Virus record (IMG/VR): IMGVR_UViG_3300046787_000286
Location: 16,060 to 80,059 of that record
Length of the DNA stretch: 64,000 nucleotides
Source of the DNA: a virus
Strand: one strand, 5' to 3'
The notes under the pieces were generated by a model that had not been told where the DNA came from, did no database searches, and saw only the letters and a program-made list of their open reading frames with translations. Positions within the stretch are counted from its first letter, which is position 1. Every line of letters begins with the position of its first letter. The position numbers were made by a program, and so were the translations under genes. Of the stretch, positions 2,631-43,468 are shown one piece after another.

Positions 2631-2662
2631 CAAAAGGGCCTTAGGGCCCTTTACTTTTATTC
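2631..2662 (+). terminator. intrinsic terminator (GC hairpin + T-run)
   Basis: aagggcc-ttag-ggccctt hairpin followed by tttacttttatt, immediately after the fibre-like genes. Confidence 0.55.
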
Positions 2663-2684: not shown

Positions 2685-2990
2685 ATGAATACTGAAAACA
2701 TTGTTGCACACGCACGAGCTCGGTTTGATCACGAGAGTGCAAAACGAGTACTTAAAGAAAAATACCAGGCCAAACTGATATTTGCCCACAACGGCGGCAT
2801 GTTTAGAGCAACTCCTGAACTGCTTGCATTTGTGCAAAGCTGGCCTATTGCCGAACTGTATATTGCAGACTTGTATAACAACCCAATTGAAGTAGACAAA
2901 CAAGTATTCCTAGTAAAGTTGCAGCAACACTACCATGAACAAATGAATGCTTGGCATGTAGAGTATACAGAAATGAGCAACAAACGATGA
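2685..2990 (+). CDS. hypothetical protein
   Basis: 101 aa ORF; its stop overlaps the next start as ATGA. Confidence 0.4.
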   Translation: MNTENIVAHARARFDHESAKRVLKEKYQAKLIFAHNGGMFRATPELLAFVQSWPIAELYIADLYNNPIEVDKQVFLVKLQQHYHEQMNAWHVEYTEMSNKR

Positions 2991-3796
2991 CCACAGGCGC
3001 ACTGATATTTGCGTTCAACAATGAAAAAACTGATTACGTTAAGATGGCCACTTGGTGTGCTAAAAGGATTCGTGCGCACCTCGACATTCCGGTTGCAATC
3101 GTCACAGATAACACAAACAGTGGATTACATCAACAATTTGATCATGTCATTAACGCAGGAGCGCAAACCGGGGGTTCTAGATACTTTGAAGATTATGCAG
3201 ACTCTGTGTCGTGGCACAACGCCGGAAGAACTGACGCTTATAACTTATCTCCATTTGAGCAAACCCTTGTACTCGATTCCGATTACGTGGTCTGCGGTGA
3301 TCAATTACAGCAAGTCTTAAACGCTCCGCAGGACTTTCTAGCACATAGAGCAGCATTTAATGTTGCTCGCCCCGAAGAACCTTTTTTAGACACATTCGGG
3401 CGCAACAAATTTCCCATGTGGTGGGCCACAGTAATGATGTTTCGTAAAAGCCCTACAGCACAATACATTTTTGATTGTATGGAAATGATCAAACACAATT
3501 GGCAGCACTACAGAAACTTATACGGAATAACAGAACACCATTACCGTAACGACTATGCACTAAGCATTGCATTGGGTATTGTGAGTGGGCACACACTAAA
3601 AGTAGATTCGATTCCTTGGCCATTGATGAGTGCTATGCCTGATACAGAATTAACAAGAGACACGTATGGCAGTGCCGAAGCCTGGATCATGAAGTATGCA
3701 GGCCGTGACGGAAAGCCTAAAAGTGTTAGCATTGCAGGGCAAGACTTTCATGCAATGGGTAAAAAGTATTTGGAGGCAATAATTGACGCCAGTTGA
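2987..3796 (+). CDS. GT-A fold glycosyltransferase-like protein
   Basis: DxD-type motif (VLDSDYVV); N-terminal region paralogous to the next gene; start taken at the ATGA overlap (MTTGAL). Confidence 0.45.
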   Translation: MTTGALIFAFNNEKTDYVKMATWCAKRIRAHLDIPVAIVTDNTNSGLHQQFDHVINAGAQTGGSRYFEDYADSVSWHNAGRTDAYNLSPFEQTLVLDSDYVVCGDQLQQVLNAPQDFLAHRAAFNVARPEEPFLDTFGRNKFPMWWATVMMFRKSPTAQYIFDCMEMIKHNWQHYRNLYGITEHHYRNDYALSIALGIVSGHTLKVDSIPWPLMSAMPDTELTRDTYGSAEAWIMKYAGRDGKPKSVSIAGQDFHAMGKKYLEAIIDAS

Positions 3797-4559
3797 AGAA
3801 CGCGGATACATTATCCCTGCATTTAATGTTGGTAAGATTGACTATGTTGACTGTGCTAGATCGTTAGCAAAAACGCTGTTGCTGCATCATCCTGATGCTA
3901 GAATCTGTTTGTTAACCAACGACAAGTCGGCGACTGATCATCACTTGTTTGCTTACACGCACATAGTAGAAGACATTGATACTGCGAACCCTTATGCGAA
4001 TGACACACTGGTGTTTAGTCACACACCGTTTAGGCAAACAATTAAACTAGAAGCAGACATGATGGTTGCTAGTGCAGTTGACCATTGGTGGACACTGTTT
4101 GAACATCGTGATGTTGTTGTTAGTCGAGGCAGTAGGGACTTTTACGATCAACCTGCTACAAGTAGAAAGTATCGCAAACTGTTTGATAACAACAACTTGC
4201 CCGATGTGTACAACGCTATAACATATTGGCGAGTAAGCAAAACTGCCACAGATTTCTTTAAACTTGTAAGGAAAATCTTTACAAATTGGGAAAGCTACAA
4301 GATTTTATTAAAGTTTCCCGAGGAAGTACCGTCCACTGATGTAGTGTATGCAATGGCTGCACAAATATTGGGACCAGAACAAGTGACATTACCTCCAGGG
4401 CTAGGTCCACAGATTGTGCATATGAAGACTGGTATGAGTCCGTTCTCTGCGCCACATTGGACTGATGAATTAGTTTGGGAAATGAATCCGCTACGTATCC
4501 AAACTGTGGCGCAATGGGGCTTCGTGCATTTACATGTAAAGGATCGTATAGATGAATGA
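3783..4559 (+). CDS. glycosyltransferase-like protein (paralog of 2987..3796)
   Basis: shared IPAFN..K.DYV..CA N-terminal pattern with the upstream gene. Confidence 0.4.
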   Translation: MTPVEERGYIIPAFNVGKIDYVDCARSLAKTLLLHHPDARICLLTNDKSATDHHLFAYTHIVEDIDTANPYANDTLVFSHTPFRQTIKLEADMMVASAVDHWWTLFEHRDVVVSRGSRDFYDQPATSRKYRKLFDNNNLPDVYNAITYWRVSKTATDFFKLVRKIFTNWESYKILLKFPEEVPSTDVVYAMAAQILGPEQVTLPPGLGPQIVHMKTGMSPFSAPHWTDELVWEMNPLRIQTVAQWGFVHLHVKDRIDE

Positions 4560-4899
4560 AACTACACAAAACTTACTGGATGTATTTGCCAACTTAGCGC
4601 CCTGGCAACCGCCTGTTGTATTTTGGAGATTGCATTACGGTGAAGTAGGAGAGCCATTGTTTTACACCCAGGAAGATAAACCAGGTAATTACATTGATGT
4701 AACGCCTGAGCAATACCAACGTGCTAGCATGCAAGTTAAGGTAGTTAACAGGAAGTTAGTAGAGCTGTCAACTAAACGTACACGCAAGTTGATGCCTAGT
4801 ACAACAGGAACTCCTTGCTATCTCTCTGATGTTAGCATTGTTGTTCCAACAACTGAACAGCACCAGTGCTGGAGATTAAAAACAAATGAAACAAATTGA
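4552..4899 (+). CDS. hypothetical protein
   Basis: 115 aa ORF in a translationally coupled series. Confidence 0.4.
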   Translation: MNETTQNLLDVFANLAPWQPPVVFWRLHYGEVGEPLFYTQEDKPGNYIDVTPEQYQRASMQVKVVNRKLVELSTKRTRKLMPSTTGTPCYLSDVSIVVPTTEQHQCWRLKTNETN

Positions 4900-5812
4900 C
4901 ATCGCAGACTTAGACTGCATTTACCTATCGTATGATGAACCACAAAAAGAAGAGCATTGGGTCAAGATTAAGAACATGGTGCCTTGGGCACGAAGGGTCG
5001 ATGGCGTTAAGGGCAGCGATGCTGCTCACAAAGCAGCGGCACAGGCCAGTAACACTGATAGATTCATTCTCATTGATGGCGACAATCTCCCCGACCCGTC
5101 GTTTTTTAATCAAACGCTTGTTCTTCCTACAGAAGAATACGAGAACGCTGTTTTCCGCTGGCGGGCACGTAACAATATCAATGGACTAATGTATGGCAAT
5201 GGTGGTTTATCTTCGTGGACCAAGGAGTTTGTCCATAATATGCAGACTCATGAAGCTTCCGACGGACGCACCGAAACCCAGGTCGAGTTCTGTTTCGATC
5301 CCCTTTATTGGGCTATGCACGATTGTTATTCTACCACCTATCCCAATGGGAGTGCGTTCCATGCCTGGCGTGCAGGATTTCGCGAGGGTGTTAAAATGTG
5401 TCTTAACCGGGGTGCAAAGCCATCTGTTGCGGAGTTCCAAAGCCGTGTTCACAGCAAGAACTTGGATAACTTAACTATCTGGCACAACGTGGGTGCAGAT
5501 GTAGAATACGGTGAGTGGGCAATTGCAGGGTCACGTATGGGCACTTATATGACTATGTTAACAGCATGGGATTATACTGCGGTACAGAACTTTGACGAGT
5601 TAGAGAAGTTATGGGACACTGTTAAAGATGATAATCCAAGACATGTTGCGCTTAGAATCGCTACAGAGTTAAACGCACAACTAGACTTACCAATGATTAT
5701 TTTAGAATCTGAACAAAGTGCTTTCTTTAAGAAACACTACCTTTCTAACTGGCACAACCGTGGCATAATGGTTAGAGAGATTGATGTTATTAGACAACAA
5801 GAAGGCTGGTAA
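4886..5812 (+). CDS. hypothetical protein (glycan cluster)
   Basis: 308 aa ORF, contains FILIDGDN. Confidence 0.4.
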   Translation: MKQIDIADLDCIYLSYDEPQKEEHWVKIKNMVPWARRVDGVKGSDAAHKAAAQASNTDRFILIDGDNLPDPSFFNQTLVLPTEEYENAVFRWRARNNINGLMYGNGGLSSWTKEFVHNMQTHEASDGRTETQVEFCFDPLYWAMHDCYSTTYPNGSAFHAWRAGFREGVKMCLNRGAKPSVAEFQSRVHSKNLDNLTIWHNVGADVEYGEWAIAGSRMGTYMTMLTAWDYTAVQNFDELEKLWDTVKDDNPRHVALRIATELNAQLDLPMIILESEQSAFFKKHYLSNWHNRGIMVREIDVIRQQEGW

Positions 5813-5818
5813 CAGTTA

Positions 5819-7210
5819 ATGACCAAAAGCGTTTTTCAAAGCTCAGCAGATGAAATGCAAAGCAAGTTAGGTCCTGCAATGTGCCTTGCTAAATGGCAAC
5901 AAACCAGTTTACACTTAACTACAGGGCACACCAATTCATGCTATCATCCTCCGTTGCACAAAATTGAACTGAGTGACATAGAAAATAATCCGTCTGGATT
6001 GCATAACACTGAGCATAAAAAACAGCAACGTGTGATAATGCTAAAGAACGAACGCCCTTCAGAATGTTCCTACTGCTGGAACATGGAAGACCTGGGCAAA
6101 ACAAGCGATAGGCACTACAGATCAGGCGAACCTTGGGCAGCAGAACACTATGACACAATCAAAAACTCAACTGGACTCGAACGGGACGTTACACCTTCAT
6201 ACGTGGAGGTTAACTTTAATAATGCTTGCAATCTACGTTGCTCTTATTGCTCTCCTCAGTATAGTTCTAGCTGGGCCGATGAGTCCAATAGGCACGGCGC
6301 ATATCCTACTAGCGTACCTCATAACGCACCTGAATATTTTAGTGGCAGTAGGAGACCTATCCCGTCTAGGGAAGCTAATCCATACGTTGATGCGTTTTGG
6401 GAGTGGTGGCCGGAGCTTTACCCTAATCTAAAACATTTTAGAATGACTGGCGGCGAGCCACTAATGGATAAGAATACACACCGTGTATTAGATTACGTTA
6501 TAGCTAACCCCAGCCCGCAACTGCACTTGAACGTAACTTCAAACTTTTCAGTAGAAGAAGTACTGTGGCAAAAGTATCTAGACAAAGTCAAGCGCATTTG
6601 CGACGGCCGCATCGAACACTTTATGCAGTATGTGAGTTTAGATGGCTTTGGATCGCAAGCAGAATACATTAGACACGGGCTTGACTTTAGATTACTGTGG
6701 GACAGAGTAAATCAATTCTTAACAGAAGTTCCTGAGTATTCTAGTTTGACATTTATTGTAACAATGAATAATCTAAGCGTGAATTCATTCAGCAGCTTGA
6801 TGTCGGGCATATTTGGGTTGCGTCAGATATATTCTAAAACGTATCAACGTGTGTGGTTCGACACCCCTGTGCTTCGCGATCCTGCGTGGCAAAGTTTACA
6901 AATACTACCTGAAAGCTATGCTGACCGTTTGGAAACAACCTGGGCATGGATGGTAAATCCCTGTAAAGATGTGTCTGAGCCTAATCCGCTGCATGTGTTC
7001 AAGGACTATGAGCTTGCTAGATTAGATCGTGACATAGCGTGGATGCGTGAAGGGCAGAAAATGGACCCTGTGGAATTAAACAAGCGCAAAGCAGACTTCT
7101 ATCGTTTCTTTTCGGAGCACGATCGACGTCGCGGCACAGACTTCAATTTAATATTCCCTGAAATGAAATCATTCTGGCAGGAATGTGAGTACCATGCCAA
7201 AAACTCCTAA
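5819..7210 (+). CDS. radical SAM family protein, paralog 1
   Basis: CNLRCSYC (CxxxCxxC) and GGEP motifs; N-terminal C..C..CxxC; C-terminal D.RR..FPE motif. Confidence 0.7.
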   Translation: MTKSVFQSSADEMQSKLGPAMCLAKWQQTSLHLTTGHTNSCYHPPLHKIELSDIENNPSGLHNTEHKKQQRVIMLKNERPSECSYCWNMEDLGKTSDRHYRSGEPWAAEHYDTIKNSTGLERDVTPSYVEVNFNNACNLRCSYCSPQYSSSWADESNRHGAYPTSVPHNAPEYFSGSRRPIPSREANPYVDAFWEWWPELYPNLKHFRMTGGEPLMDKNTHRVLDYVIANPSPQLHLNVTSNFSVEEVLWQKYLDKVKRICDGRIEHFMQYVSLDGFGSQAEYIRHGLDFRLLWDRVNQFLTEVPEYSSLTFIVTMNNLSVNSFSSLMSGIFGLRQIYSKTYQRVWFDTPVLRDPAWQSLQILPESYADRLETTWAWMVNPCKDVSEPNPLHVFKDYELARLDRDIAWMREGQKMDPVELNKRKADFYRFFSEHDRRRGTDFNLIFPEMKSFWQECEYHAKNS

Positions 7211-8270
7211 GCTAGTGTTAGACACATTCTCAGAAGTATACAATCTACTAAAGCCTTATGCTGATGACGAATTCTGGGATTTGTCACAGCACGATATTAT
7301 CCCGGGCGCCACGTATGTTGTAGGGCGCAAGCAATGTATAGATCATCGCGAGCGTTTACTAGAGTTAGCAAATAACAACACTATACAGCTAGTTATAAGC
7401 AACCCGCACGAAGGTTCGCAAACACTAGCAGGGCAAATGACACGTCTGGGGTTCAAGAACGCCAACATCAAGCTAATAGGCGGGGGCAACATGCCTGCAG
7501 ACTGGGACTACATACTCTACGATAAGTTCCTGCCCGAAATACTGGACTACGAAGAAAACTTGATAGCAGCAGACTCTACTCTTGCAATATACAACAAAAC
7601 ATCTAAGCCATACCAGTTTCTTTTTCTAAATGGCAGAGCTCGCCCACATAGGGCAGACTTAATTCGCAAGCTCGCTACCAGATCATTGCTAAACAACAGC
7701 TTGTGGACCAATCTAGACTCAGGAAATGGTGCTGTGCAAACACTGCACCCAGCTTACGAAGTTCCTCGCTATAGAAACAATGCCACAACTGATCACTATG
7801 TCAAGTTCGAATTGTTTAATAATGAATGGGGAGAAATCTATTTAGAACCTGCGCCTTATATTGATACCTATTTTAGTTTGATAACAGAAACAGTATTTGA
7901 TATTCCTTATAGTTTCCGCACAGAAAAGATTTGGAAACCCATTGTTATGGGTCATCCTTGGATAGCAGTGGCCAACGCAGGCTTTTATAGAGACATGCGC
8001 AACCTAGGCTTCCAAACATACTCGCATCTAATAGACGAATCCTTTGACAGTATTGAAAATAATACAGACAGATTGGATAGAATAGTCGATATAGTAAAAG
8101 ATTTATGCAGTCAAGACCTTGCGGCTTTCTTGCAAGAGTGCTATAATACTAGTAAATACAATCAGCAACATCACAGGGAAATGGCCGCAAAGGTCCGAAA
8201 AGAATTTCCCGAACGCTTTTTCCAATTTATCAATGAACGATCTAGAATACCGCCAGCAAGTACTGGATAA
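7185..8270 (+). CDS. glycosyltransferase-like protein (TEK motif, fucosyltransferase-like)
   Basis: ETVFD..YSFRTEKIWKPIVMGHPW resembles the GT10 'ENS..TEK..PI..G' signature; two paralogs at 18810..21126. Confidence 0.4.
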   Translation: MSTMPKTPKLVLDTFSEVYNLLKPYADDEFWDLSQHDIIPGATYVVGRKQCIDHRERLLELANNNTIQLVISNPHEGSQTLAGQMTRLGFKNANIKLIGGGNMPADWDYILYDKFLPEILDYEENLIAADSTLAIYNKTSKPYQFLFLNGRARPHRADLIRKLATRSLLNNSLWTNLDSGNGAVQTLHPAYEVPRYRNNATTDHYVKFELFNNEWGEIYLEPAPYIDTYFSLITETVFDIPYSFRTEKIWKPIVMGHPWIAVANAGFYRDMRNLGFQTYSHLIDESFDSIENNTDRLDRIVDIVKDLCSQDLAAFLQECYNTSKYNQQHHREMAAKVRKEFPERFFQFINERSRIPPASTG

Positions 8271-9561
8271 ACTTTCACCTAGCTTTTGTGCTGCCAAATG
8301 GTACAATGCTACTATATGGCTGGGCTCAGGGCAAACAACCAGTTGCCATCACCCTCCTGCACATGCCATAGATGCAGAAGCAGTTAAAACAAACCCTGCT
8401 GCATTGCACAATACCAAACAAAAGAAAATTGATCGTTTAATGATGCAAAATGGGGAAAGACCCTCAGGTTGCGAATACTGTTGGAAAATTGAAGACATGG
8501 GAGTAGATGCAGTTAGCGATCGTGTGTACAAATCCAAGATATATCCCATAAAGGCTTTAAATGACGCATACTCGACACCTGCTGCACATGACGTGGATCT
8601 CCGTACTTTGGAGATTGCTTTTGATCGTACTTGTCAGTTTGCTTGTAGCTATTGCAACCCAGCATTTAGTTCTACATGGGTTAATGATATTAAACGTAAC
8701 GGACCCTACACTAACTTGGTTAGCGATGGTAGGAATCACTTCACTCATACTCATGAGTCTAGTCAGCTATATCGCTACGGGGAAACCAATCCGTATGTTG
8801 AGGCATTTTTTGACTGGTGGGAATCGAGCTTACATAGAACACTTCAAGAGCTACGAATCACAGGAGGAGAGCCCCTCATGTCCGCCCACACATGGAAGCT
8901 CATTGATTGGTTCAAAACAAATTCGGGCAAGAGTAATACACGCTTGGCTATCAATAGTAACCTCGGGACTGAGGTCGACGTCACACGTTTACTGGAATCC
9001 ACGCAGGGTCTAGACGTAGAAATATACACTAGCATGGAAGCTGTAGGTGCGCAAGCTGAATACATTCGCGACGGACTTGTATATGCAGACTGGCAAGCAA
9101 ACGTAGATAAGCTGTTAAACGCAGGTGTTACAGTACACTTTATGGCAACCATTAATGCTCTTTGTTTGGAAACTCTAACAGATCATTTAAATTACTTGCT
9201 GACCTTGAAAGAATTATACGGGCGTGATCGTGTTAATTTTACATTAAATATTCTACGCTTTCCGTCATTTCAAAGTGCTCTAGTACTGGATCCAGATGAT
9301 CGCACCTATTTTAAATTGGCGTTGCAGTCATGGCTAAACGCCAACGGCAACAGCCCTTTATTGCACGAACACGAAGTTAATCACACACAACGATTAATTG
9401 ATTACTTGGACATTGTTAAAACACCGCACTCGGATACGTTTGACATGCCCAAGTTACTGAATGACTTTAAACATTTCTACGAGCAATACGACCTGCGTAG
9501 GAAAAAGAATTTAAAAGAAACATTCCCTATTATTGGATATTGGTATAATTTATGTCTATAA
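8233..9561 (+). CDS. radical SAM family protein, paralog 2
   Basis: FDRTCQFACSYCNP, ITGGEP; start chosen at MNDLEY by N-terminal alignment to paralog 1. Confidence 0.7.
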   Translation: MNDLEYRQQVLDKLSPSFCAAKWYNATIWLGSGQTTSCHHPPAHAIDAEAVKTNPAALHNTKQKKIDRLMMQNGERPSGCEYCWKIEDMGVDAVSDRVYKSKIYPIKALNDAYSTPAAHDVDLRTLEIAFDRTCQFACSYCNPAFSSTWVNDIKRNGPYTNLVSDGRNHFTHTHESSQLYRYGETNPYVEAFFDWWESSLHRTLQELRITGGEPLMSAHTWKLIDWFKTNSGKSNTRLAINSNLGTEVDVTRLLESTQGLDVEIYTSMEAVGAQAEYIRDGLVYADWQANVDKLLNAGVTVHFMATINALCLETLTDHLNYLLTLKELYGRDRVNFTLNILRFPSFQSALVLDPDDRTYFKLALQSWLNANGNSPLLHEHEVNHTQRLIDYLDIVKTPHSDTFDMPKLLNDFKHFYEQYDLRRKKNLKETFPIIGYWYNLCL

Positions 9562-17250: not shown

Positions 17251-17344
17251 AATGGATTAAAAATCTATGGGCAAGGATCACGTTAGAAATACGTTATCGT
17301 AAAAAACTAAAAGAACTACGTAAACGCGACCCATTTATCTACAA

Positions 17345-18826
17345 ATGAATACACTAGGCATATCAGCAGGGTTTCATGATGCAGCAGCGTCTGTAATTGA
17401 CCGCGACGGTAACATACTGTTTGCCAGTCATTCTGAACGTTATAGTAAACAAAAGAGTGACTCAGATATTTCGTTAGAAATGTTAAACGAAATAGATATG
17501 AGTACTGTAGATACCATTGCGTACTACGAGCGTCCTTTAGTTAAACAACTACGTCAATTTTATTCCGGACAAGGGATTGAGTGGGATAAGCTAACTACTC
17601 GACAAGTATTAGAACAACAGTTGGGCTACAACAGAATTGGCAATCGCAAGCTAAAAAGCTACAATCATCACTTGTGTCATGCAGCCGCAGGCTTTCAAAC
17701 CAGCTCGTTTGATCGTGCTACTGTAGTTGTGATTGATGCAGTAGGCGAGTTTGAAACCATTACTATATGGGGAGCAGAATATGATAAACACGGTCGTGCA
17801 AAGTATAAGAAACTTTGGCAACAACATTACCCACATTCAATTGGACTCTTTTACACTGGAGTTACTCAGCGGGTTGGCCTACGCCCACTAGACGAAGAAT
17901 ACATTCTAATGGGAATGGCAGCATACGGCAGTAACGACGTTAGTAATCGCATGCGTTATGATCTAATAGACGACGAATGGGAAATACGTTTCAAGGAGAA
18001 CTTGCATCTAGGACTGTCAGTTAAATATCTAAGCGATTATTCAGACTTTGATATTGCTGCCGGCGCACAAGACTTGGTAGAAGACCTGATACTCAACGTT
18101 ATGGTTCGAGCAAGAAAGTTCAAGTGGAGCAGTAATTTAGTCTACATGGGCGGTGTTGCTCTTAATTGCTCTGCTAATAGGAGAATTGGAAATTATTTCG
18201 ATAATATATGGATTATGCCTAATCCTGGCGATGCTGGCAGTAGTCTTGGCGCTGCCGCTTTGGCTCATGGGCGTAAAATTAACTGGAGCAACGCTTATCT
18301 CGGGCATGATATTCCTGGTGCTTATCCTGTTAACGACATACTTGATGAGCTACTTGTTCGGAAGATTGTGGGAGTGGCTTCCGGGAGAGCCGAGTTCGGT
18401 CCAAGAGCACTTGGAAACAGAAGCCTGCTTGCAGATCCTAGAGGCAGCGAGATTAAGGAGAAAGTAAATGACATTAAACGTAGACAACAATTCAGACCAT
18501 TTGCGCCCGTTATTTTGGAGGAACTGGCTGATACTTACTTTGATATGCCTCGTGGCTTCAGTAATAGTAGGTATATGCAGTCAGTCGCTCGTTGTAGGGT
18601 ACCTGAGTTATTTCCTGCTATCGTTCACGCTGACGGCACTAGTCGTGTTCAGACAGTGCCGAAAGATGGATCAGGCATTAGAGAACTGCTTGAAAAATGG
18701 TACGTAATGACTGACTGCCCCATGTTGCTTAACACAAGTTTAAACATACGTGGGGAGCCTATGGTTAACGATCGAGCAGACGCTGACCGCTTTGAACGAG
18801 AGTATGGGGTTAGAGTATGTTCTTAA
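17345..18826 (+). CDS. carbamoyltransferase (NodU/CmcH family)
   Basis: N-terminal MNTLGISAGFHDAAASVID..HSERYSKQK and overall architecture typical of O-carbamoyltransferases. Confidence 0.7.
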   Translation: MNTLGISAGFHDAAASVIDRDGNILFASHSERYSKQKSDSDISLEMLNEIDMSTVDTIAYYERPLVKQLRQFYSGQGIEWDKLTTRQVLEQQLGYNRIGNRKLKSYNHHLCHAAAGFQTSSFDRATVVVIDAVGEFETITIWGAEYDKHGRAKYKKLWQQHYPHSIGLFYTGVTQRVGLRPLDEEYILMGMAAYGSNDVSNRMRYDLIDDEWEIRFKENLHLGLSVKYLSDYSDFDIAAGAQDLVEDLILNVMVRARKFKWSSNLVYMGGVALNCSANRRIGNYFDNIWIMPNPGDAGSSLGAAALAHGRKINWSNAYLGHDIPGAYPVNDILDELLVRKIVGVASGRAEFGPRALGNRSLLADPRGSEIKEKVNDIKRRQQFRPFAPVILEELADTYFDMPRGFSNSRYMQSVARCRVPELFPAIVHADGTSRVQTVPKDGSGIRELLEKWYVMTDCPMLLNTSLNIRGEPMVNDRADADRFEREYGVRVCS

Positions 18827-20000
18827 CCAGCTCTGCTAGCTTTAGTTTCTTATCCAAGCTGCTGAGATATAGCTGACGATTATACTGCATATCTTCCCAC
18901 ATACTCATATACCAGGCGTGCATGTCCAGGTTTTTTATTTTCTTTACAGCTTCCACACATAGTTTAAAACGCTCAGTGTTATCTTCCACTTCGTCATAAC
19001 TGTTGTCAATTGCATAGTCATAGGTTCTGTACCCTAATTTACGCAAAGTCTTTAATGTATGTGGAGTACCGAATACCACAAATGGTTGTCCGTGACGAAT
19101 AGGTTTAAACACCTTTTCACTAATGAAACAACCGTTGCTGCCGTCTGCATCAAAGAACGTTTCTAGTACTAAATGACAATAGCTATCAGCATAGTGCTCA
19201 GGTACAAACATCCAGTGACTGTTATGTTCTGTGGCGTTTTGTTCGTCGCACTTGTAAGGCCCTGCTGCTAAAAACTCAGCCATGCTGGTATCTAGCCTGG
19301 CAAATTGATGCACTTGAATTGGGTTGTCTTCGTAACGATCGCCAATGTCCACATTGCCGTAACTCCAGTAGCTATTGCCCAGCAACTGATTATTATACAA
19401 ATGACTCACAATAGTTGAGCGCCACCATTTGTGTACACGACTTAATAGTGTAAACTCTCTATTGCGCTTGAACAGGTGAGGCTCACACCCAATTTGCGGA
19501 ATATCATTCCATACTACACTATTGCGCCAGTAAAACAATTCGTGATCAGCAAAGTAAACAAAGTTATCTATACTGTCTGCTTCTGTGTTACCGGATATAA
19601 AGCGATAGCAGTCTACTGGCAAGTTATGCTCCGCACACAGTTGATCTAGTCGTGCTTTTTCGTGATGCGGATTGTCGCCTTCGTGATAATAGAATAACGC
19701 ACGTAATTTGCCACTACGCAGATAGCTTCTAACTTGCTCGCTCATTAGGCCAAAGAAGTCTAGTGAAAAGTCAAACCAACTGATACCAATAGGGTAGAAC
19801 GCATTGGGCGGCAATGACTCGTTGATGTAGCTGATGTTAATAGGAAAGCCGTGATCCGCTGCATAGTAGAATATGCGTATGGGACAAATAAATGGATACT
19901 CGTCACCTATGTCACTGTATCCTGTGCGTGTGTCTGTCCAGGGTGCTAGATTAGGGTAAGGCCCTGCAGAGCCTGTTCGATCATAAACGAGATTCAGCAT
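18810..20000 (-). CDS. glycosyltransferase-like protein (TEK-motif paralog)
   Basis: LETFFD...ISEKVFKPIRHGQPF, paralogous to 7185..8270. Confidence 0.4.
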   Translation of the reverse strand: MLNLVYDRTGSAGPYPNLAPWTDTRTGYSDIGDEYPFICPIRIFYYAADHGFPINISYINESLPPNAFYPIGISWFDFSLDFFGLMSEQVRSYLRSGKLRALFYYHEGDNPHHEKARLDQLCAEHNLPVDCYRFISGNTEADSIDNFVYFADHELFYWRNSVVWNDIPQIGCEPHLFKRNREFTLLSRVHKWWRSTIVSHLYNNQLLGNSYWSYGNVDIGDRYEDNPIQVHQFARLDTSMAEFLAAGPYKCDEQNATEHNSHWMFVPEHYADSYCHLVLETFFDADGSNGCFISEKVFKPIRHGQPFVVFGTPHTLKTLRKLGYRTYDYAIDNSYDEVEDNTERFKLCVEAVKKIKNLDMHAWYMSMWEDMQYNRQLYLSSLDKKLKLAELVKNIL

Positions 20001-21126
20001 GAATATCCTTTAACATAGATTGTAGCTCGTCCCACAGAATCTCTTCAAAACCACCATTATAGAAGTGTTTCCAATTATGCTCGACCGTCTCACGACAAAG
20101 GTGGAATAGTGCAATTCTTTCTTCAACGGAAAGGTCACAAAGAGTTTTAAGCAAGCTGGCAATCGCTGCGATACGCTCATGAGGATCCGCAATTGTGTCG
20201 TAGGTCTCATCCCATATATGCCCAAAAGTCTTAAATCCATAACTACGCAAATACTCCAAACTGCCTTGTGTTGCTACTAGCACAAACGGCATACCTAATG
20301 CAATAGGTTTAAATGTTTTCTCTGTTAAATGATGTCTGCGACCATCTGCAACAGTTTCGGTTACTAAGTATAGCAGACTATCTGCTGCTTGGTCAAACAA
20401 ACTGAGCCAGCATGAATGCATGGGGTGATCAGTTTCGTTCTCAAAGTTAATAGGCAACTGCTGTGCAGCAAACACATCCTGTATATCTGGGTAGATTCCT
20501 AACAATGGCTCAGCAGCATCTACTATGCTTATGTTCTCAGCAGGGCACACAGCAGGGCACGAAATGTGATTGTCTGTTAGATTGTTCTTGAATATGTGAT
20601 AAAGCATTTCCAATCTGTGTTTGCGTTCGCCTGCAATAATACGGTTAGGTGCTATAAACGTTCGAGTAGGAGCACGTTTAGCAATAGGTGTAATTAGGAA
20701 TGTTTTATTATATCCTCTATACCAGTCTAGTGCTGCCCAACCGTGAAAGAAATAGTAATAACTGCGCCAGCCAAAAGATGCACACAATTCATCCACAGCA
20801 TCGCTATCACGTTCACTGGTTACAATGCTACCGGGCCACTTTTTGTAACCTTCAAATTTGGGTAAATTCTCAGCGTTCCAGTGAATGTCGTAATTGTGGT
20901 AATCTCTAACTCGATCAAACGTAGGTAAGTGTATACCCAAATGAATTGGCTCTTGATCAAAAAATAGTGTATAATTATACTCGGGTATGTCATTTAGTCC
21001 ATAATTAAGTATACTATCAGGATCGCTTCTACCGAATGGATCGCAAAATTGTATTCTATGGCCTGGTAAATTTTTCTTAAACCACGGCCAAAATGTATTT
21101 TGATATATTTCGTCTATTCTAAACAT
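19981..21126 (-). CDS. glycosyltransferase-like protein (TEK-motif paralog)
   Basis: VTETVADG..LTEKTFKPIALGMPF. Confidence 0.4.
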   Translation of the reverse strand: MFRIDEIYQNTFWPWFKKNLPGHRIQFCDPFGRSDPDSILNYGLNDIPEYNYTLFFDQEPIHLGIHLPTFDRVRDYHNYDIHWNAENLPKFEGYKKWPGSIVTSERDSDAVDELCASFGWRSYYYFFHGWAALDWYRGYNKTFLITPIAKRAPTRTFIAPNRIIAGERKHRLEMLYHIFKNNLTDNHISCPAVCPAENISIVDAAEPLLGIYPDIQDVFAAQQLPINFENETDHPMHSCWLSLFDQAADSLLYLVTETVADGRRHHLTEKTFKPIALGMPFVLVATQGSLEYLRSYGFKTFGHIWDETYDTIADPHERIAAIASLLKTLCDLSVEERIALFHLCRETVEHNWKHFYNGGFEEILWDELQSMLKDIHAESRL

Positions 21127-22930
21127 GTTTGATATTTTTTATATTGGCCAGAAGCCAAATCTTTTTGCCCACGAGCAGCCAGTTGATAGCATAAAGCAAG
21201 CACAAGAACTCAGCAGAACTAGATATTGTTGGGTAATAAATTACTTAGCGGATCTGGGCAGTTGGGATTTTCTTTGGGAACCAAGTCCGTGGCAAAGTCA
21301 CTTTAGACATGCATGGCCCAGCCAACATCAAAAAGACGCAGGCGTATATCTTGTTCCCAAGACCTGGAATGGAACTGACACACACTACCATACTAGCCCT
21401 GCTGTAACTAGACTATCAGGTGTCGACAACTGGAGCGGTGTTAATTATAACTTTGACTATTCGTGGCACCCAGACTACAGTGAGCCACCGTACATTTATC
21501 AGTTTGGTACACAGCACCAACGCACAGGTGGCCCACAATATATTATTCCGGGCGCAACAGAAATCAAGTTTGTAGACCAATACAAGGTCAAAGTTGATAG
21601 GGTTGCTACAGCTATTGTAGAAATTGATCACTTGGACGGTAATGCAGGACACATACCCGGTGCTACTGATAGAGCAAGATACTTTGACAACTACAGAGAT
21701 ACGCTGATTCGTATTGCAAAAAAATTAAACGGGCAACACGAATTTGCTTGGATATGTTCTAGCATCTGCGACTACGAAGGGTTTGACTTTTCGTGGCACC
21801 CAGAGCAGTGGCAAGCAACAATGCTTCATGTATTCCCCAGCAATGATCAAAAGTTTGGCGATACATTCTTTATGCATGTGCCTACCTTTGCGTATCGAGC
21901 AGAACAGTTTAAATTACTAGACTGGTATGATGTAAACTTTATTGATACAGTAGTACCTAGACGTCGATTACCTGTGATAGAACACACCAGTGACAGTCAA
22001 GCAGAAGCAATCAAAAGCACCGACTGGGCAGGGCCATTGGCATTGTTTACAGTGGACGGATTGCCAATGACTATCCCCGCAGTGTCTTTATGGAGACAAG
22101 AAACAAAAACAATCATGCCGTTGAGTAAGGGCGCAAGTTCTGTAATTGTTCCTAAAACAGCAGTGCCATATATCAAAACACAGCTATACGATTACCCTTA
22201 CATAGATAAAACTAATACTAGGCGTGCTAGCGATCAACCTCTAGACATTGTGTTTATCAGCAACGGTGAATCAAATGCAGAAGACAACTGGATGATGTTG
22301 GAAAACAGGATCTTGTTGTTGGAACCAAACAAACTACACAGAGTAGATAGAGTCAACGGTCGAGCTGCTGCTTATCATGCCGCTGCTAGAGCAAGTACTA
22401 CACCTTGGTTCTTTGCAGTGTTTGGCAAGTTAGCAATCGATTTAAGATTTGATTGGGAGTGGCAACCTGATCGCATGCAGGAAGCCAAGCACTACATCTT
22501 CCACGCTCGTAATCCTGTTAATGGATTAGAGTATGGCCATCAGGCAATGATTGCTTACAACAAGCAATTGGTATTAAACAATCCTGGGGTAGGACTAGAC
22601 TTCACACTAGATAGCCCACACGAGGTTGTTCCTATCCTTACAGGCACAGCCTATTATAATGATAGTGCGTGGCAGTGCTGGCGCACAGCGTTTCGCGAAG
22701 TTCTAAAGCTCAAAGCAAGTCTTCCTGATGTAGAAGCAGAGTATCGTATTAGTCGCTGGCTACTCCCTAACTTTGGAGATATTGATAAGTGGAGCCAGTT
22801 GGGCGCACAAGATGCAGTTGAGTACTACGATGAAGTGGACGGAGACTTCGATGCTCTTAAAAAGAGCTATGAATGGGAATGGCTAGCAAGCTATGCGTTC
22901 GTTAAACGCAGTCTAGTACCTGGTCAATAA
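21125..22930 (+). CDS. hypothetical protein with internal repeats
   Basis: 601 aa; repeated FD(Y/F)SWHP motifs; its start codon overlaps the divergent gene's start (CATG). Confidence 0.5.
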   Translation: MFDIFYIGQKPNLFAHEQPVDSIKQAQELSRTRYCWVINYLADLGSWDFLWEPSPWQSHFRHAWPSQHQKDAGVYLVPKTWNGTDTHYHTSPAVTRLSGVDNWSGVNYNFDYSWHPDYSEPPYIYQFGTQHQRTGGPQYIIPGATEIKFVDQYKVKVDRVATAIVEIDHLDGNAGHIPGATDRARYFDNYRDTLIRIAKKLNGQHEFAWICSSICDYEGFDFSWHPEQWQATMLHVFPSNDQKFGDTFFMHVPTFAYRAEQFKLLDWYDVNFIDTVVPRRRLPVIEHTSDSQAEAIKSTDWAGPLALFTVDGLPMTIPAVSLWRQETKTIMPLSKGASSVIVPKTAVPYIKTQLYDYPYIDKTNTRRASDQPLDIVFISNGESNAEDNWMMLENRILLLEPNKLHRVDRVNGRAAAYHAAARASTTPWFFAVFGKLAIDLRFDWEWQPDRMQEAKHYIFHARNPVNGLEYGHQAMIAYNKQLVLNNPGVGLDFTLDSPHEVVPILTGTAYYNDSAWQCWRTAFREVLKLKASLPDVEAEYRISRWLLPNFGDIDKWSQLGAQDAVEYYDEVDGDFDALKKSYEWEWLASYAFVKRSLVPGQ

Positions 22931-23990
22931 CATATTCAACTTCTGAATCTGTTAGCTCAGGATAGATAGGCAAGCTCAAACAACGTCTGCTTAGAGCTTC
23001 TGCGCCACTAAAGAAACGTTCGCTGTGGTAGCAATTACTATATGCTGGTAAACTCCACAAAGGCTCTGTGTAATGCACTTTTGTTTCAATGCCACGTTCT
23101 TTAAGTTTAGCGGCCACTTGATCTCGGTTGTCTAGTGCAATAACAAACTTGTGATAGCAATGCTTGTCAAAGTTTGTTTTATCTATTAAACTACGCACAG
23201 GGCTATTTTCTAAACGAGTCATCCAGTCTTGTGCAATAACTCGTCTACGATGTTGCCAGTAATCAATAGCGCGAGTCTTGACCATCATTTGGGCACAGTC
23301 TATTTCACTCATGCGAGAGTTAGATCCTGCCATGTGATGTTTGTGATGTTTTCCGTGTGTGGTCCAGTCTCTAGCAAACGAAGCCAGTAACGAATCATCT
23401 GTTACAATAGCGCCGCCGTTGCCATAGTTTGCTAGATTCTTTGTGGGATCGAAACTAATAGCAGTGGCTTTACTGCGACGTCTACATTTATCTGCAAGCC
23501 AATGCTGGGCACCATCCTCGATTACGTAGTCTGAATAGTAATACGCAGTATCATCAGCAAGTGCCTGTCCGTATAACCCAACTACGCATACGGCTTGACG
23601 ACTACGACTGCGATCGATCTTGTTGTAGTCTATTTGTCCGTAAGCATCTGTGTCAATAAGATCTATTTCCCAACCTGCACGACTCCATGCGTTGGCAGTA
23701 GCAGGGAATGTTAGTGCAGGGAGTATCACACGCGGAGGGTGTATACTTTGTTCTTCGGCATAATACGCAGCAATAATTTCTAATGCTTGTGTGCCAGAGT
23801 GGCAGGTTACTGCATGTCGTTGACGATTCTTGTTAGCAAGCCATTCTTCGAACAGTGTAGTTTGTTCCCCGCTCATGAGGTTACCTGAACGCAACACTCG
23901 ATCAGTTGCATCCAGGATTTCTTCTCTGAGATTGTTATACTGCCTTTGGATTCCAGTAAACGGAATTGTTAAGCCATTTGTAGTATTCAT
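22902..23990 (-). CDS. DegT/DnrJ/EryC1/StrS-family PLP-dependent sugar aminotransferase
   Basis: IPF..QY N-terminus, SFDPTKNL.. lysine region, HAVTCHSGTQALE. Confidence 0.75.
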   Translation of the reverse strand: MNTTNGLTIPFTGIQRQYNNLREEILDATDRVLRSGNLMSGEQTTLFEEWLANKNRQRHAVTCHSGTQALEIIAAYYAEEQSIHPPRVILPALTFPATANAWSRAGWEIDLIDTDAYGQIDYNKIDRSRSRQAVCVVGLYGQALADDTAYYYSDYVIEDGAQHWLADKCRRRSKATAISFDPTKNLANYGNGGAIVTDDSLLASFARDWTTHGKHHKHHMAGSNSRMSEIDCAQMMVKTRAIDYWQHRRRVIAQDWMTRLENSPVRSLIDKTNFDKHCYHKFVIALDNRDQVAAKLKERGIETKVHYTEPLWSLPAYSNCYHSERFFSGAEALSRRCLSLPIYPELTDSEVEYVIDQVLDCV

Positions 23991-24903
23991 GGAATCCTTG
24001 TTCTACGTCAATCTTGGGGTCAAAACCTAGTTTAGCTCTAGCCTTGTCAATGTTTAGTGCGCCACGACTTGGAAAGTCTGCGTCTTTGTCTTTTACTTCT
24101 ATTGAGCCTTTGCCCACAATACTAACCACCATTTGGGCGGCTTGGAGGAGTGAGACTGAATGAGATTTAGTAATGTTGTAAGTATCGTTCGCAGCACCCA
24201 CTTCCAGTGCAGCCGCCACAATTCCATCCGCAGCGTCATCGACATAGGTAAAGTCCAGTGTCTCCGACGCTCCGTTAACCTTAAGGGTTTCACCACGCAT
24301 GGCTGTAAGCATAAACTTTGCAACAACTCTATCTTCCACGTCCAGAGGCCCGTATACTGCCGATGGACGTATGATAACATACTCCATTCCTGTTCGTCGT
24401 GCGTAATCTTTGACAAGCCATTCTCCTGCAAGTTTCATAATGCCGTATTGTCCCTGTGGGTTGCATACTGCATCTTCTGTGACTTGATCTTGAAAGTCAC
24501 CATACACCATTGAACTGGAGATATAAACAAAACGTCTAACTCCGTGTGCTTTAGCACTTTCTAGCAAGTTGATCAAGCCACGCATCATTACATCCGCACC
24601 TGCTTGTGGGTTTGCGTTTACAACTTTCTGTCTAGGAAAGCTGGCCATGTGTATCAACACTTCTGGCTTGGTAGATTTTACAACAAAATCAATATTGTCT
24701 TTGTCTGCAATATTAGTACTGTAATGCAAGTGGTACCCAATCTTATCACCACGTTGATGCATTAAGTAATCAATTTCGCTTTGCGGAATGATGCCGTAGG
24801 TTGTTTTGTTGTCGACAATACTTGTGTGATGTTTTAAATCTTTCAAGCGTTTGATAACGTTGTGACCGATTAGGCCGTACCCGCCTGTTACTAATATTTT
24901 CAT
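23935..24903 (-). CDS. NAD-dependent sugar epimerase/dehydratase
   Basis: MKILVTGGYGLIGHNV Rossmann motif; YxxxK region (YGIMKLAGE). Confidence 0.75.
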   Translation of the reverse strand: MKILVTGGYGLIGHNVIKRLKDLKHHTSIVDNKTTYGIIPQSEIDYLMHQRGDKIGYHLHYSTNIADKDNIDFVVKSTKPEVLIHMASFPRQKVVNANPQAGADVMMRGLINLLESAKAHGVRRFVYISSSMVYGDFQDQVTEDAVCNPQGQYGIMKLAGEWLVKDYARRTGMEYVIIRPSAVYGPLDVEDRVVAKFMLTAMRGETLKVNGASETLDFTYVDDAADGIVAAALEVGAANDTYNITKSHSVSLLQAAQMVVSIVGKGSIEVKDKDADFPSRGALNIDKARAKLGFDPKIDVEQGFHEYYKWLNNSVYWNPKAV

Positions 24904-43009: not shown

Positions 43010-43093
43010 TGGTGCCCAGGGCGAGACTCGAACTCGCACGGATTTCTCCACTACCACCTCAAGATAGCGTGGCTACCATTACACCACCTGGGC
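43010..43093 (-). tRNA. tRNA-Leu (anticodon GAG), class II
   Basis: acceptor GCCCAGG/CCTGGGC, anticodon loop TTGAGGT, long variable arm, encoded CCA. Confidence 0.75.
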
Positions 43094-43468
43094 TTATCTT
43101 ATTGCTTTTGCTCTAGCGTGAATAACATCATCAACATTGCCTTTAACAATGACATTGGTGTAGGTGTCTACAAATTCGCTAGCATGATCTACCACACGAT
43201 TGTCAGGTTCGTGGTAGGTCCTAACTCGCTCGCTACCTGCTAGGTTGCGTTCCTTGTCTTTGTGGAAGTGTGCCTGAATGCGTGACAAGCAGGTAATGTA
43301 GGCTGCACGTTTGTTATCTTCGCGGCTACGGCTGTTAGTGCCGTTCGCTTGAATGCCAGTGGGCTCATGAATGCATCGGCAACAATTTTGATGCTTGTTA
43401 CGATGTTGCCCACCTTTGCCTGTTCCAGAGAACCACTCGTAACGAAATTGATCTTCTGTAATTTTCAT
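43094..43468 (-). CDS. peptidyl-tRNA hydrolase domain protein (ArfB/class I release factor-like, GGQ motif)
   Basis: SGTGKGGQHRNK...HEPTGIQANG; start moved to MKITEDQ so that it does not overlap the tRNA. Confidence 0.6.
   Translation of the reverse strand: MKITEDQFRYEWFSGTGKGGQHRNKHQNCCRCIHEPTGIQANGTNSRSREDNKRAAYITCLSRIQAHFHKDKERNLAGSERVRTYHEPDNRVVDHASEFVDTYTNVIVKGNVDDVIHARAKAIR

Follow-up and report, generated by a model that had tools for sequence, protein, structure and literature searches.

The window analysed here, a stretch of 64,000 nucleotides from an uncultured giant phage, carries a block of about 22 kb (positions 2987-24903) that adjoins tail-fibre genes and raises the question of what the block makes and on which acceptor. 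It extends from the ATG of A1 at 2987 to the start of an SDR gene on the minus strand at 24903. A first-pass annotation had interpreted it as an island for an aminated, carbamoylated deoxy-sugar polymer similar to cyanophage LPS islands, and each of the sugar genes that it listed was found between those two positions. The region can be divided into three putative sub-modules: M1 (2685-8270; h101, A1, A2, h115, B1, R1, and T1), M2 (8233-18826; R2-R7, U346, a micro-ORF, and CT), and M3 (18810-24903; T2, T3, B2, DegT, and SDR). Most of the protein families encoded in the block are undescribed.

The first gene of M1 is h101 (2685..2990, + strand), coding for a conserved protein of 101 aa that was found in 81 of 83 related loci and showed no Pfam or NCBIfam match. 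A strong terminator-like hairpin (2633-2652) separates it from the fibre genes, so co-transcription with them is not assured. A1 (2987..3796, +) and its paralog A2 (3783..4559, +) share 24% identity (BLASTP E 1.4e-8): A1 is a GT-A-fold, GT8-like (retaining-type) glycosyltransferase candidate with an LDSD motif and an invariant C-terminal His, and A2 has LEAD in place of LDSD, the second Asp being invariant in the alignment. A2 also matched phrog_1903, which has no assigned function (E 1.4e-8). The GT-A fold, the DxD motif, and the downstream His liken both proteins to CAZy family GT8 (glycogenin, LgtC). They are followed by h115 (4552..4899, +), which encodes a conserved protein of 115 aa present in 81 of 83 loci with a median identity of 41% and lacking any family match in Pfam, PHROG, or NCBIfam.

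T1 (7185..8270, +; TEK-family HMM E 5e-73), T2 (18810..20000, -), and T3 (19981..21126, -), the last being the family member that was modelled, are candidate glycosyltransferases. They matched each other in pairwise BLASTP with E values from 1e-15 to 3e-19, and E257, T258, E269, K270, K273, P274, I275, and G278 are invariant across them. All three are paralogs within one GT-B family that is specific to viruses and whose invariant motif is ET...TEK..KPI..G. Their GT-B fold and E-x(10-13)-TEK-x2-KP-x3-G motif are reminiscent of CAZy family GT10 (alpha-1,3-fucosyltransferases), whose FEN...TEK motif we take to be comparable. Neither A1/A2 nor T1-T3 matched Glyco_transf_8, Glyco_transf_10, or any solved glycosyltransferase at the HMM or sequence level. 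Fold and motifs agree with GT8 and GT10, and membership of these two families was not borne out by HMMs.

No protein of the block is more conserved than B1 (4886..5812, +). B1 is weakly GT2-like and carries ILIDGDN at the DxD position; a glycosyltransferase fold is only hinted at by a match to Glyco_tranf_2_3 that lies below the cut-off (E 0.005 over 38 residues) and was obtained for three of 26 family members, and no PDB sequence match was found. B2 (21125..22930, +) consists of N-terminal FD(F/Y)SW.P repeats and a C-terminal B domain in which FGK replaces DxD; over residues 373-567 it shares 30% identity with B1 (E 2e-12), and it had no Pfam match. B2 homologs range from 533 to 2132 aa according to the copy number of a repeat unit estimated at ~65-70 aa. 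B1 and the C-terminal part of B2, a weakly GT2-like pair, are a second set of paralogs that the first-pass annotation may also have meant.

The radical-SAM array reported earlier beside the sugar genes comprises seven tandem N-terminal-twitch paralogs located from 5819 to 16220 on the + strand, all exceeding the NF033640 cut-off of 170 bits. R1 (5819..7210; 319.6 bits) contains CX3CX2C and four upstream Cys. The start of R2 (8233..9561; 283.4 bits) was set at the ATG at 8233, which fits its homologs, the longest ORF beginning at 8119. R3 (9552..11255; 395.5 bits) bears an N-terminal extension of ~165 aa and a SPASM match (E 2e-12) N-terminal of the Radical_SAM domain. R4 (11252..12637; 226.7 bits) is rare in relatives, reaching at least 40% identity in nine of 80 carbamoyltransferase-centred loci (median 42%), the other loci giving mostly 22-41%. 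The best PDB sequence matches of R5 (12634..13842; 341.4 bits) were SkfB (E 3e-4) and BlsE (E 0.07). R6 (13826..14938; 235.8 bits) is an extra paralog specific to this window, with no ortholog at 40% identity or above in 163 loci, and R7 (14925..16220; 282.3 bits) is 65-71% identical in relatives.

Downstream of the array lies U346 (16210..17250, +), which encodes a conserved 346-aa protein with no match in Pfam, PHROG, NCBIfam, or PDB and is always located upstream of the micro-ORF. Kinship between U346 and the SGNH-like proteins that occupy the same position elsewhere was considered and rejected (hhalign probability 0.4%). The micro-ORF (17247..17348, +; 33 aa, MKWIKNLWARITLEIRYRKKLKELRKRDPFIYK) overlaps the end of U346 on one side and the start of the carbamoyltransferase gene on the other, and its translation is coupled to that of both genes. 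Its C-terminus, RKRDPFIYK, is near-invariant: among 54 distinct DNA versions residues 17-33 hardly change despite codon variation, and six Leu codons are used at each of two invariant Leu positions. Strong purifying selection acts on the micro-ORF. Neither this ORF nor the association with tail-fibre genes had been noticed in the first-pass annotation. CT (17345..18826, +), announced there as an O-carbamoyltransferase, indeed contains both Pfam domains of the NodU/CmcH/TobZ family (Carbam_trans_N, E 3.6e-36; Carbam_trans_C, E 2e-46); its NodU score of 130.7 bits is far under the equivalog cut-off of 1000. It is 45% identical to ORF199 of Ralstonia phage RsoM2USA, 48% to the protein of Marine virus AG-345-D19, and 28-31% to "Nol-like" gene products of cyanophages and pelagiphages.

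The two remaining M3 genes were also confirmed. DegT (22902..23990, -; Pfam E 2.3e-62) codes for a DegT/DnrJ/EryC1-family sugar (or cyclitol) aminotransferase that scored under every equivalog cut-off; its closest solved relatives are Gln-scyllo-inositol transaminase (3.6e-41), QdtB (1.8e-39), the 2oga "Transaminase" (2.4e-36), and WbpE (1.8e-33). The predicted NAD epimerase/dehydratase (23935..24903, -) is an extended SDR of the nucleotide-sugar epimerase/oxidoreductase type (Pfam Epimerase E 7.7e-45), and its closest solved relative is UDP-glucose 4-epimerase (1.3e-27). Its motif, YISSSMVYG...YGIMK, is presumably GalE-like, without the dehydratase Asp-Glu pair, and its score against the 4,6-dehydratase equivalog was 133.7 bits for a cut-off of 365. 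These results do not support a deoxy-sugar product.

In an abundant uncultured jumbo-phage lineage related to RsoM2USA, the block is a core module with conserved synteny. Contigs of this lineage measure ~320-374 kb. The block proteins have thousands of metagenomic homologs: more than 6000 each for B1, T3, and the A family, B1 having at least 8000, of which the 120 listed are 79-90% identical to it; B1 orthologs taken together show 75-90% identity. At least 331 IMG/VR stretches encode relatives of B1 and at least 597 relatives of CT. Of 57 long loci, 44 retain the order fib2-A1-A2-B1-R1-R2-R3-R5, and 40 of 53 retain R5-R7-CT. Dozens of independent metagenomic contigs repeat this gene set and order, far more than chance would produce. 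The block is therefore a conserved part of the lineage and not an accessory or variable LPS island, as "island" had implied. Upstream of it are a fibre gene, whose product carries a Peptidase_G2 chaperone domain, and a gene for a fibre-like protein with 30% Ser+Thr.

RsoM2USA (343.8 kb) was the only cultured relative found, and among isolated phages it alone has homologs of A1, A2, B1, R1, R2, the micro-ORF, and CT, all annotated as hypothetical except the micro-ORF, which is unannotated. Its A1, A2, B1, and R1 homologs (32-38% identical) are arranged as in the block, in the order fibre(ORF355)-ORF354-A1-A2-ORF351-B1-R1, and lie downstream of the baseplate genes and of ORF361, a giant structural-protein gene. 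Mass spectrometry identified the ORF361 product as a protein of the virion (PMC8504454). ORF350 is 38% identical to B1 and adjoins ORF349, which is 36% identical to R1 (E 1e-100). The R2, micro-ORF, and CT homologs (45-53% identical) are in the ORF199-203 region, ORF202 (53% identical to R2, E 3e-152) lying three genes from the carbamoyltransferase, and SGNH-like proteins stand in place of U346. Unlike in the block described here, M1 and M2 are ~95 kb apart in RsoM2USA, and the 40 kb around its carbamoyltransferase contain no TEK, A, or B member; with no glycosyltransferase or fibre genes near it there, M2 may serve a different target from M1. M3 was not found in RsoM2USA: tblastn with T3 gave no match in any isolated phage of the collection.

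A hydrophobic span is absent from 21 of the 22 block products and marginal in the R3 extension; none of the 22 has a span typical of Wzx, Wzy, WaaL, GtrA/B, or a phosphoglycosyl transferase, and no flippase, polymerase, ligase, GtrA/B, or initiating transferase was matched in Pfam. These results do not support an LPS-like pathway and indicate that the glycan acceptor is probably cytoplasmic. Since no membrane component was found and M1 keeps its place beside tail-fibre and baseplate genes even in distant phages, a phage-made virion component is the most likely acceptor, and the gene order in RsoM2USA makes decoration of virion fibres the best guess. We thus tentatively propose, with a probability of about 0.4, that the block is a conserved module working wholly in the cytoplasm, where it would assemble a glycan on such a component, and not on host LPS, and tailor it. 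The SDR would epimerise or oxidise a host nucleotide-sugar, and DegT would transaminate the presumed product to an amino sugar; by analogy, the keto intermediate could alternatively arise via a BtrN-like twitch radical-SAM dehydrogenase. A1 and A2, possibly B1, and T1-T3, judging from their folds, would add sugars stepwise to a soluble acceptor, for which the Ser/Thr-rich fibre proteins encoded just upstream are candidates. CT would O-carbamoylate the product with carbamoyl phosphate and ATP, following the chemistry of its family, and the radical-SAM paralogs may alter it further. No polymerase is present that would make the proposed polymer, and the number of transferases, five to seven, points to a defined oligosaccharide. 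Virus-encoded glycosylation of virions has precedents in the Mimivirus fibril clusters, the PBCV-1 capsid glycosyltransferases, and mycobacteriophage capsid and tail glycosylation; in contrast to these systems, the present block is known from its genes alone. To our knowledge, neither radical-SAM enzymes, a carbamoyltransferase, nor a coupled micro-ORF form part of them. Several points speak against virion decoration: a set of five to seven radical-SAM enzymes has no precedent in the making of a protein glycan; LgtC, a lipooligosaccharide enzyme, scores no worse than GT8 enzymes that glycosylate proteins; and the hairpin before h101, the faint fold signal of B1, and the distant M2 and missing M3 match in RsoM2USA weigh in the same direction.

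The recurrence of micro-ORF, CT, and twitch radical-SAM genes in three distant phage groups raised the idea of a peptide scaffold. Micro-ORF homologs adjoin the carbamoyltransferase in RsoM2USA and in Marine virus AG-345-D19, and a cassette of SGNH-like protein or U346, micro-ORF, CT, and N_Twi_rSAM is common to both and to this lineage. The substrate could then be the micro-ORF product, in a RiPP-like pathway in which twitch radical-SAM enzymes and CT would modify the RKRDPFIYK end and the transferases would glycosylate the product, or an aminocyclitol/aminoglycoside-like small molecule. Purifying selection on the micro-ORF and its coupling to U346 and CT favour a peptide, and HypF-type relatives of CT carbamoylate a protein C-terminus; the transaminase closest to DegT favours a small molecule, and the combination of twitch radical-SAM, DegT, and TobZ-type carbamoyltransferase is a signature trio of aminoglycoside pathways. 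The solubility of all the enzymes suits either version. Parallels may be drawn with mycofactocin (MftA peptide, radical-SAM/SPASM MftC, GT2 MftF) and 2-deoxystreptamine antibiotics (BtrN, BtrR, TobZ), with which the block presumably shares auxiliary-cluster radical-SAM enzymes, a DegT-type transaminase, a TobZ-family carbamoyltransferase, glycosyltransferases, and a short Tyr-containing peptide. However, the likeness is one of gene repertoire only: the twitch domain here is N-terminal, and no scaffold peptidase, exporter, cyclitol synthase (2-deoxy-scyllo-inosose synthase), or RiPP-recognition (PqqD-like) domain was detected, the last in Pfam and NCBIfam. Moreover, the micro-ORF peptide lacks Cys, a basic amphipathic helix of this kind would suit a small CT subunit or a nucleic-acid binder just as well, and in RsoM2USA M1 accompanies fibre genes and not the peptide. 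We consider such a pathway unlikely.

Alternatively, the soluble transferases and tailoring enzymes might modify undecaprenyl-linked LPS or capsule intermediates of the infected host, a role that has been suggested for the "LPS" genes of cyanophages. Lipid carriers of the host can serve peripheral transferases, and LgtC and WaaG-type enzymes appear among the fold neighbours of the block transferases. The resemblance to cyanophage islands holds in that the clusters of T4-like cyanophages and pelagiphage HTVC008M, whose function is likewise putative, share the soluble Nol-like carbamoyltransferase beside glycosyltransferase and nucleotide-sugar genes; in HTVC008M it adjoins a glycosyltransferase, a methyltransferase, and a UDP-glucose dehydrogenase. 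It fails in that those clusters lack the N-twitch radical-SAM array, the micro-ORF, and the A, B, TEK, and U346 families, and the block here, unlike them, is a lineage core beside fibre genes. Envelope remodelling is made improbable by this conserved position, by the 65-90% conservation of genes that are not strain-variable, and by the lack of the membrane functions named above. In addition, a scan of 185,579 species genomes of bacteria and archaea, insensitive because one peptide pattern was used, found the TEK family at only 11 loci, every one of them in MAGs or uncultured-organism bins. Hypermodification of DNA, with the GT-B enzymes placing exotic tailored sugars on phage bases like the T4 alpha-/beta-glucosyltransferases, appears very improbable.

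Relatives of the lineage carry extra genes inserted within the same frame, coding for TEK transferases (59), DegT (18), SDR (8), SGNH/GDSL-like proteins (53+22), an APS-kinase-like kinase (14), and an AMP-binding enzyme (13), a pattern of surface-glycan-like diversification.

In the block, 22 genes follow one another without gaps. Upstream of them lie a tail-fibre gene (337-1626), whose product has a chaperone domain of the Peptidase_G2 type, and fib2 (1640-2614), which codes for a fibre-like protein with 30% Ser+Thr. On the plus strand are found h101 (2685-2990), the GT8-like candidates A1 (2987-3796) and A2 (3783-4559), h115 (4552-4899), the weakly GT2-like B1 (4886-5812), the radical-SAM gene R1 (5819-7210) and the TEK-motif candidate transferase gene T1 (7185-8270), followed by the R1 paralogs R2 (8233-9561), R3 (9552-11255), R4 (11252-12637), R5 (12634-13842), R6 (13826-14938) and R7 (14925-16220), by U346 (16210-17250), by a micro-ORF for 33 aa (17247-17348) and by CT (17345-18826), a carbamoyltransferase gene of the NodU/TobZ type. 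The remaining part contains T2 (18810-20000) and T3 (19981-21126), both coding for TEK-motif proteins, the aminotransferase gene DegT (22902-23990) and SDR (23935-24903), all on the minus strand, and on the plus strand B2 (21125-22930), which is paired with B1. The start codons of T3 and B2 stand back to back on a common CATG (21124-21127), and the 3' ends overlap by 17 nt between CT and T2 (18810-18826) and by 29 nt between B2 and DegT (22902-22930). Since there is no intergenic DNA at the strand switches, any promoters or terminators there must sit within coding sequence. Between fib2 and h101, a terminator-like hairpin (2633-2652, plus strand) of eight pairs, five of them G-C, with a T-rich tail is the strongest of its kind in the first 20 kb of the window; a promoter-like site (2650-2678) is located 3' of it.

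The first-pass annotation had described this block as an island. Synteny across relatives led us to discard a variable island and to see in the block a core that a jumbo-phage lineage has conserved: 44 of the 57 long loci retain the order fib2-A1-A2-B1-R1-R2-R3-R5, and 40 of 53 retain R5-R7-CT. A megablast search with 25 kb found no counterpart among 50,697 phage records. Metagenomic homologs number more than 6000 for each of T3, B1 and the A family; in the 120 best matches listed for each, identities to the window protein are 65-100%, 79-90% and 55-63%, respectively. In IMG/VR, 331 stretches carry B1 relatives and at least 597 carry CT relatives; the contigs that bear them reach 320-374 kb. 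Tailoring genes that relatives have inserted within the same frame code for extra TEK transferases, DegT and SDR enzymes, SGNH/GDSL-like proteins and further radical-SAM/SPASM proteins, as well as for an AMP-binding enzyme and an APS-kinase-like kinase; a frame that stays fixed while its tailoring genes are swapped is the pattern of surface-glycan loci. Several related loci (L126:12169-12960, L050:11843-12928, L134:9376-10035 and similar) contain in the block an APS-kinase-like P-loop kinase, an adenylate-forming AMP-binding enzyme and many SGNH/DUF6071-like proteins, which hints that in relatives the product may be sulfated, acylated or O-acetylated. Orthologs of T3, 65-66% identical, are also present on 148- and 183-kb contigs of the MAG 'Haliscomenobacter sp. 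EUL_031' (NZ_JBBAKG010000001/3; L167, L168, L175), which are probably phage contigs binned with the bacterium and possibly a hint of a host in the Saprospiraceae.

The assignment of A1, A2 and T1-T3 as glycosyltransferases held at the level of folds and motifs, and failed at that of membership in the GT8 and GT10 HMM families. The fold of A1 and A2 is GT-A, closest to that of GT8 enzymes, and the A family contains the motif LD(S/A)D with an invariant second Asp (D99), together with an invariant H255, in 26 and 33 sequences; both residues are candidate metal/nucleotide-sugar ligands. Neither protein matched Glyco_transf_8 or any other Pfam family at E<=0.01, nor any NCBIfam model, and the profile found no PDB chain at E<=10. 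T1-T3 have a GT-B fold, as expected of CAZy GT10, and in the TEK family the motif ET...TEK..KPI..G, which resembles that of GT10, is invariant; T1-T3 had no Pfam match, and none of 80 diverse members matched GT10 (PF00852) or another Pfam GT family. This GT-B family comprises about 13,000 representative clusters. In a scan with a single peptide pattern its relatives were near-absent from bacterial genomes, a weak indication that the family is virus-restricted, and tblastn with T3 against phage records gave no match. A distant member is present in another phage-like contig (L166:5097-7695), head to head with a UDP-glucose/GDP-mannose dehydrogenase gene.

B1 matched Glyco_tranf_2_3 of Pfam weakly (E 0.005) across 38 residues around ILIDGDN. 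Of 26 B-family members, 3 gave weak matches to the same model and there was a LAG1-DNAbind match, attributable to the B2 repeats; we treat the Pfam result for these 26 as noise. Proteins of the B2 type show FGK in place of DxD and have N-terminal FD(F/Y)SW.P repeats; depending on the number of copies, homologs are 533 to 2132 aa long. The repeat unit has about 65-70 aa (...NW.IP..ID...FDFSWHPD...PPYIY.FGTQWQKTGGP.Y..PGATEIKY... in L137:11491-17889, plus strand, and other B2 homologs); it has no Pfam model and was found neither outside the B2 family nor in the fibre proteins, which were searched for it. By hhalign, B was unrelated to A, and U346 to the SGNH-like group. Single-sequence and profile searches of PDB sequences with A, B, TEK and U346 returned nothing meaningful, NCBIfam gave no match for A1, A2, B1, B2, T1, T3, U346, h101, h115 or the micro-ORF, and in PHROGs only phrog_1903, of unknown function, was matched. 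U346, h101 and h115 had no family match in any search made. Four protein families are undescribed by any curated library: the GT8-like family, B, the apparently virus-restricted GT-B (TEK) family and U346.

The carbamoyltransferase, the DegT aminotransferase and the SDR were all confirmed by Pfam, and none reached an NCBIfam equivalog cut-off. CT has the two domains of NodU/CmcH/TobZ carbamoyltransferases, both near full length: Carbam_trans_N (Kae1-like, E 3.6e-36) and Carbam_trans_C (YrdC-like, E 2e-46). Since it falls below the NodU equivalog cut-off (130.7 vs 1000 bits), its substrate is left undefined. The nearest solved relatives of DegT are Gln-scyllo-inositol transaminase, QdtB, the 2oga transaminase and WbpE, which we take to be C3-type aminotransferases. 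Those of SDR are UDP-glucose 4-epimerases; its sequence contains SSSMVYG and YGIMK, a GalE-like signature, and in our reading appears to lack the dehydratase Asp-Glu pair. An aminated deoxy-sugar had been proposed for the product. Its deoxy part was rejected, because SDR scored 133.7 bits against the dTDP/NDP-hexose 4,6-dehydratase equivalog cut-off of 365 and is closest to UDP-glucose 4-epimerases. Given the relatives of DegT and the epimerase-like SDR, an amino sugar would be a reasonable component, and 'deoxy' is unsupported.

The seven radical-SAM proteins R1-R7 are all members of NF033640 (N_Twi_rSAM, 'twitch domain-containing radical SAM protein'), with 226.7-395.5 bits against a curated cut-off of 170 bits for the full-length HMM. 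The CX3CX2C SAM-cluster motif is intact in all seven, each time preceded by at least four Cys in a C...C(C)...CxxC pattern (auxiliary-cluster/twitch segment), and in R3 and R5 a Pfam SPASM match lies N-terminal of the Radical_SAM match. Few relatives have R4, and for R6 no ortholog reaches 40% identity, so both are regarded as extra paralogs. An eighth N_Twi_rSAM paralog (46333-47541, plus strand, 246.8 bits) is located outside the block, on the strand opposite to its neighbours and in the segment of lowest GC of the window (0.368). No functional description of NF033640, or of the N-terminal twitch radical SAM family, was found in the literature. Twelve radical-SAM genes have been noted in a marine T4-like genome (PMC5332604); beyond that note, we found no description of radical SAM in jumbo phages or of the gene combination of the block.

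The micro-ORF, with 33 codons between U346 and CT, overlaps both neighbours and is translationally coupled to CT; in relatives it is present in the JGI gene calls. Its residues 17-33 (YRKKLKELRKRDPFIYK) are almost invariant, ending in ...RKRDPFIYK, and synonymous codons vary freely: among 54 distinct DNA versions, all six Leu codons are used at each of two invariant Leu positions. In the Ralstonia jumbo phage RsoM2USA, an unannotated 36-aa ORF between ORF201 and ORF200 ends in ...RKQDPFIYK (L164:20892-21002, minus strand), and in the marine virus AG-345-D19 a 39-aa ORF that overlaps the CT start ends in ...RKSDPYIYEE (L179:5703-5822, plus strand), with a twitch radical-SAM gene after CT. The CTs of S-CAM8 and HTVC008M, which are more distant, have no such micro-ORF beside them, and no description of the DPFIY motif was found in the literature. 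Because the cassette [SGNH-like or U346]-micro-ORF-CT-N_Twi_rSAM is common to the window lineage, RsoM2USA and AG-345-D19, we consider it to predate the remainder of the block. The peptide may serve CT as a small subunit, or it may itself be the substrate. As regards a RiPP-type pathway, an ORF of this kind is coupled to CT and close to radical-SAM genes in three phage groups, and no RRE/PqqD domain was detected by Pfam or NCBIfam.

RsoM2USA was the only isolated phage in which homologs were found. It has the order fibre (ORF355)-ORF354-A1 (ORF353)-A2 (ORF352)-ORF351-B1 (ORF350)-R1 (ORF349), after baseplate genes and ORF361, a 2541-aa virion protein (PMC8504454). Its orthologs of R2 (53% identical) and CT (45%) lie instead about 95 kb from this segment, among three SGNH-like paralogs; the RsoM2USA paper makes no mention of these genes. 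A virion (fibre) target for the product is favoured mainly because this neighbourhood of A1, A2, B1 and R1 with the fibre is conserved in RsoM2USA at 32-38% identity. Decoration of the virion or its fibres with a glycan also fits the folds, the solubility of the products and the swapped tailoring genes, and we tentatively prefer it, at a probability of roughly 0.4; the glycan itself is predicted, and a further caveat is the terminator-like hairpin that separates fib2 from h101. An LPS-like pathway, as suggested in the first-pass annotation by comparison with cyanophages, did not survive hydropathy and Pfam analyses, which failed to find the integral-membrane steps of a Wzx/Wzy or ABC route. 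In 21 of the 22 products no Kyte-Doolittle window of 19 residues reached 1.6, and no Pfam match to an initiating phosphoglycosyl transferase, flippase, polymerase or ABC exporter was found in the block. Therefore, the block does not encode the canonical route to LPS or capsule, and its acceptor must be accessible from the cytoplasm; remodelling of host LPS, with every membrane step missing, is quite improbable.

A peptide-scaffold or aminoglycoside-like product, which we hold to be unlikely, would account for the micro-ORF and the radical-SAM array, for the transaminase of the scyllo-inosose type and for the position of the R2-CT segment (8233-18826) on its own in RsoM2USA. In a specific form, which we judge slightly less likely still, the micro-ORF product would be the substrate or scaffold. 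Its C-terminal Tyr-Lys region would be modified by the twitch radical-SAM proteins and the HypF/TobZ-type CT, and the phage transferases would then glycosylate it, yielding a phage-made, peptide-derived glycoconjugate (cofactor, effector or virion ligand). If true, this would be a kind of ribosomal-peptide pathway undescribed for viruses, conserved among freshwater jumbo phages, a Ralstonia phage and a marine virus. Glycosylation of DNA rests on the fold match, which does not discriminate, and is opposed by canonical ThyA/ThyX, making it very improbable. The ThyA gene adjoining the block downstream (25533-26432, minus strand) codes for a bona fide thymidylate synthase that passes the equivalog cut-offs, which eliminated this homolog as a hydroxymethylase; within the 64-kb window, no hydroxymethyl-pyrimidine synthesis (ThyA-like hydroxymethylase) or T4-type glycosylation acceptor was found. 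Close relatives carry ThyX (PF02511) in the same position (L001:3767-4453, L002:2976-3662), a non-orthologous replacement.

Glycosylation by virus-encoded enzymes is known in giant viruses, in chloroviruses and in a few mycobacteriophages, and in cyanophages by annotation only. Such clusters being already known, what is new here is the jumbo-phage core, the four undescribed families, the radical-SAM array and the undescribed coupled micro-ORF. An abundant, uncultured lineage of jumbo phages has this 22-kb glycosylation-type block as a conserved core, in which a radical-SAM family without known function is present in five to seven copies. Decoration of the tail fibres by the product of the block, if it occurs, would matter for how hosts are recognised and how receptors or defences of lake bacteria are evaded, and would for the first time place the N-twitch radical-SAM family in a biological context. 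The micro-ORF-CT-radical-SAM cassette is a concrete testable unit, and its presence in the cultured RsoM2USA opens the role of the phage 'Nol-like' carbamoyltransferases to experiment.

The content of the window fits a jumbo phage from a lake that belongs to the Rak2/PA5oct-related assemblage; we infer its freshwater origin. Elsewhere it contains MoxR/VWA, peroxiredoxin, RNA ligase and RNase H genes. About 37 tRNA genes are arrayed at 43010-61135 (minus strand), two of them with odd anticodon loops (46165-46253, 53640-53730), and a permuted tmRNA (59346-59791) encodes the tag peptide ANANTKGEVAINARGVKIARRAAVLA. A full-length GOLLD RNA (45196-45661, minus strand; Rfam RF02032, 197.6 bits, E 3e-54) has a tRNA-Asn embedded at 45526-45599.
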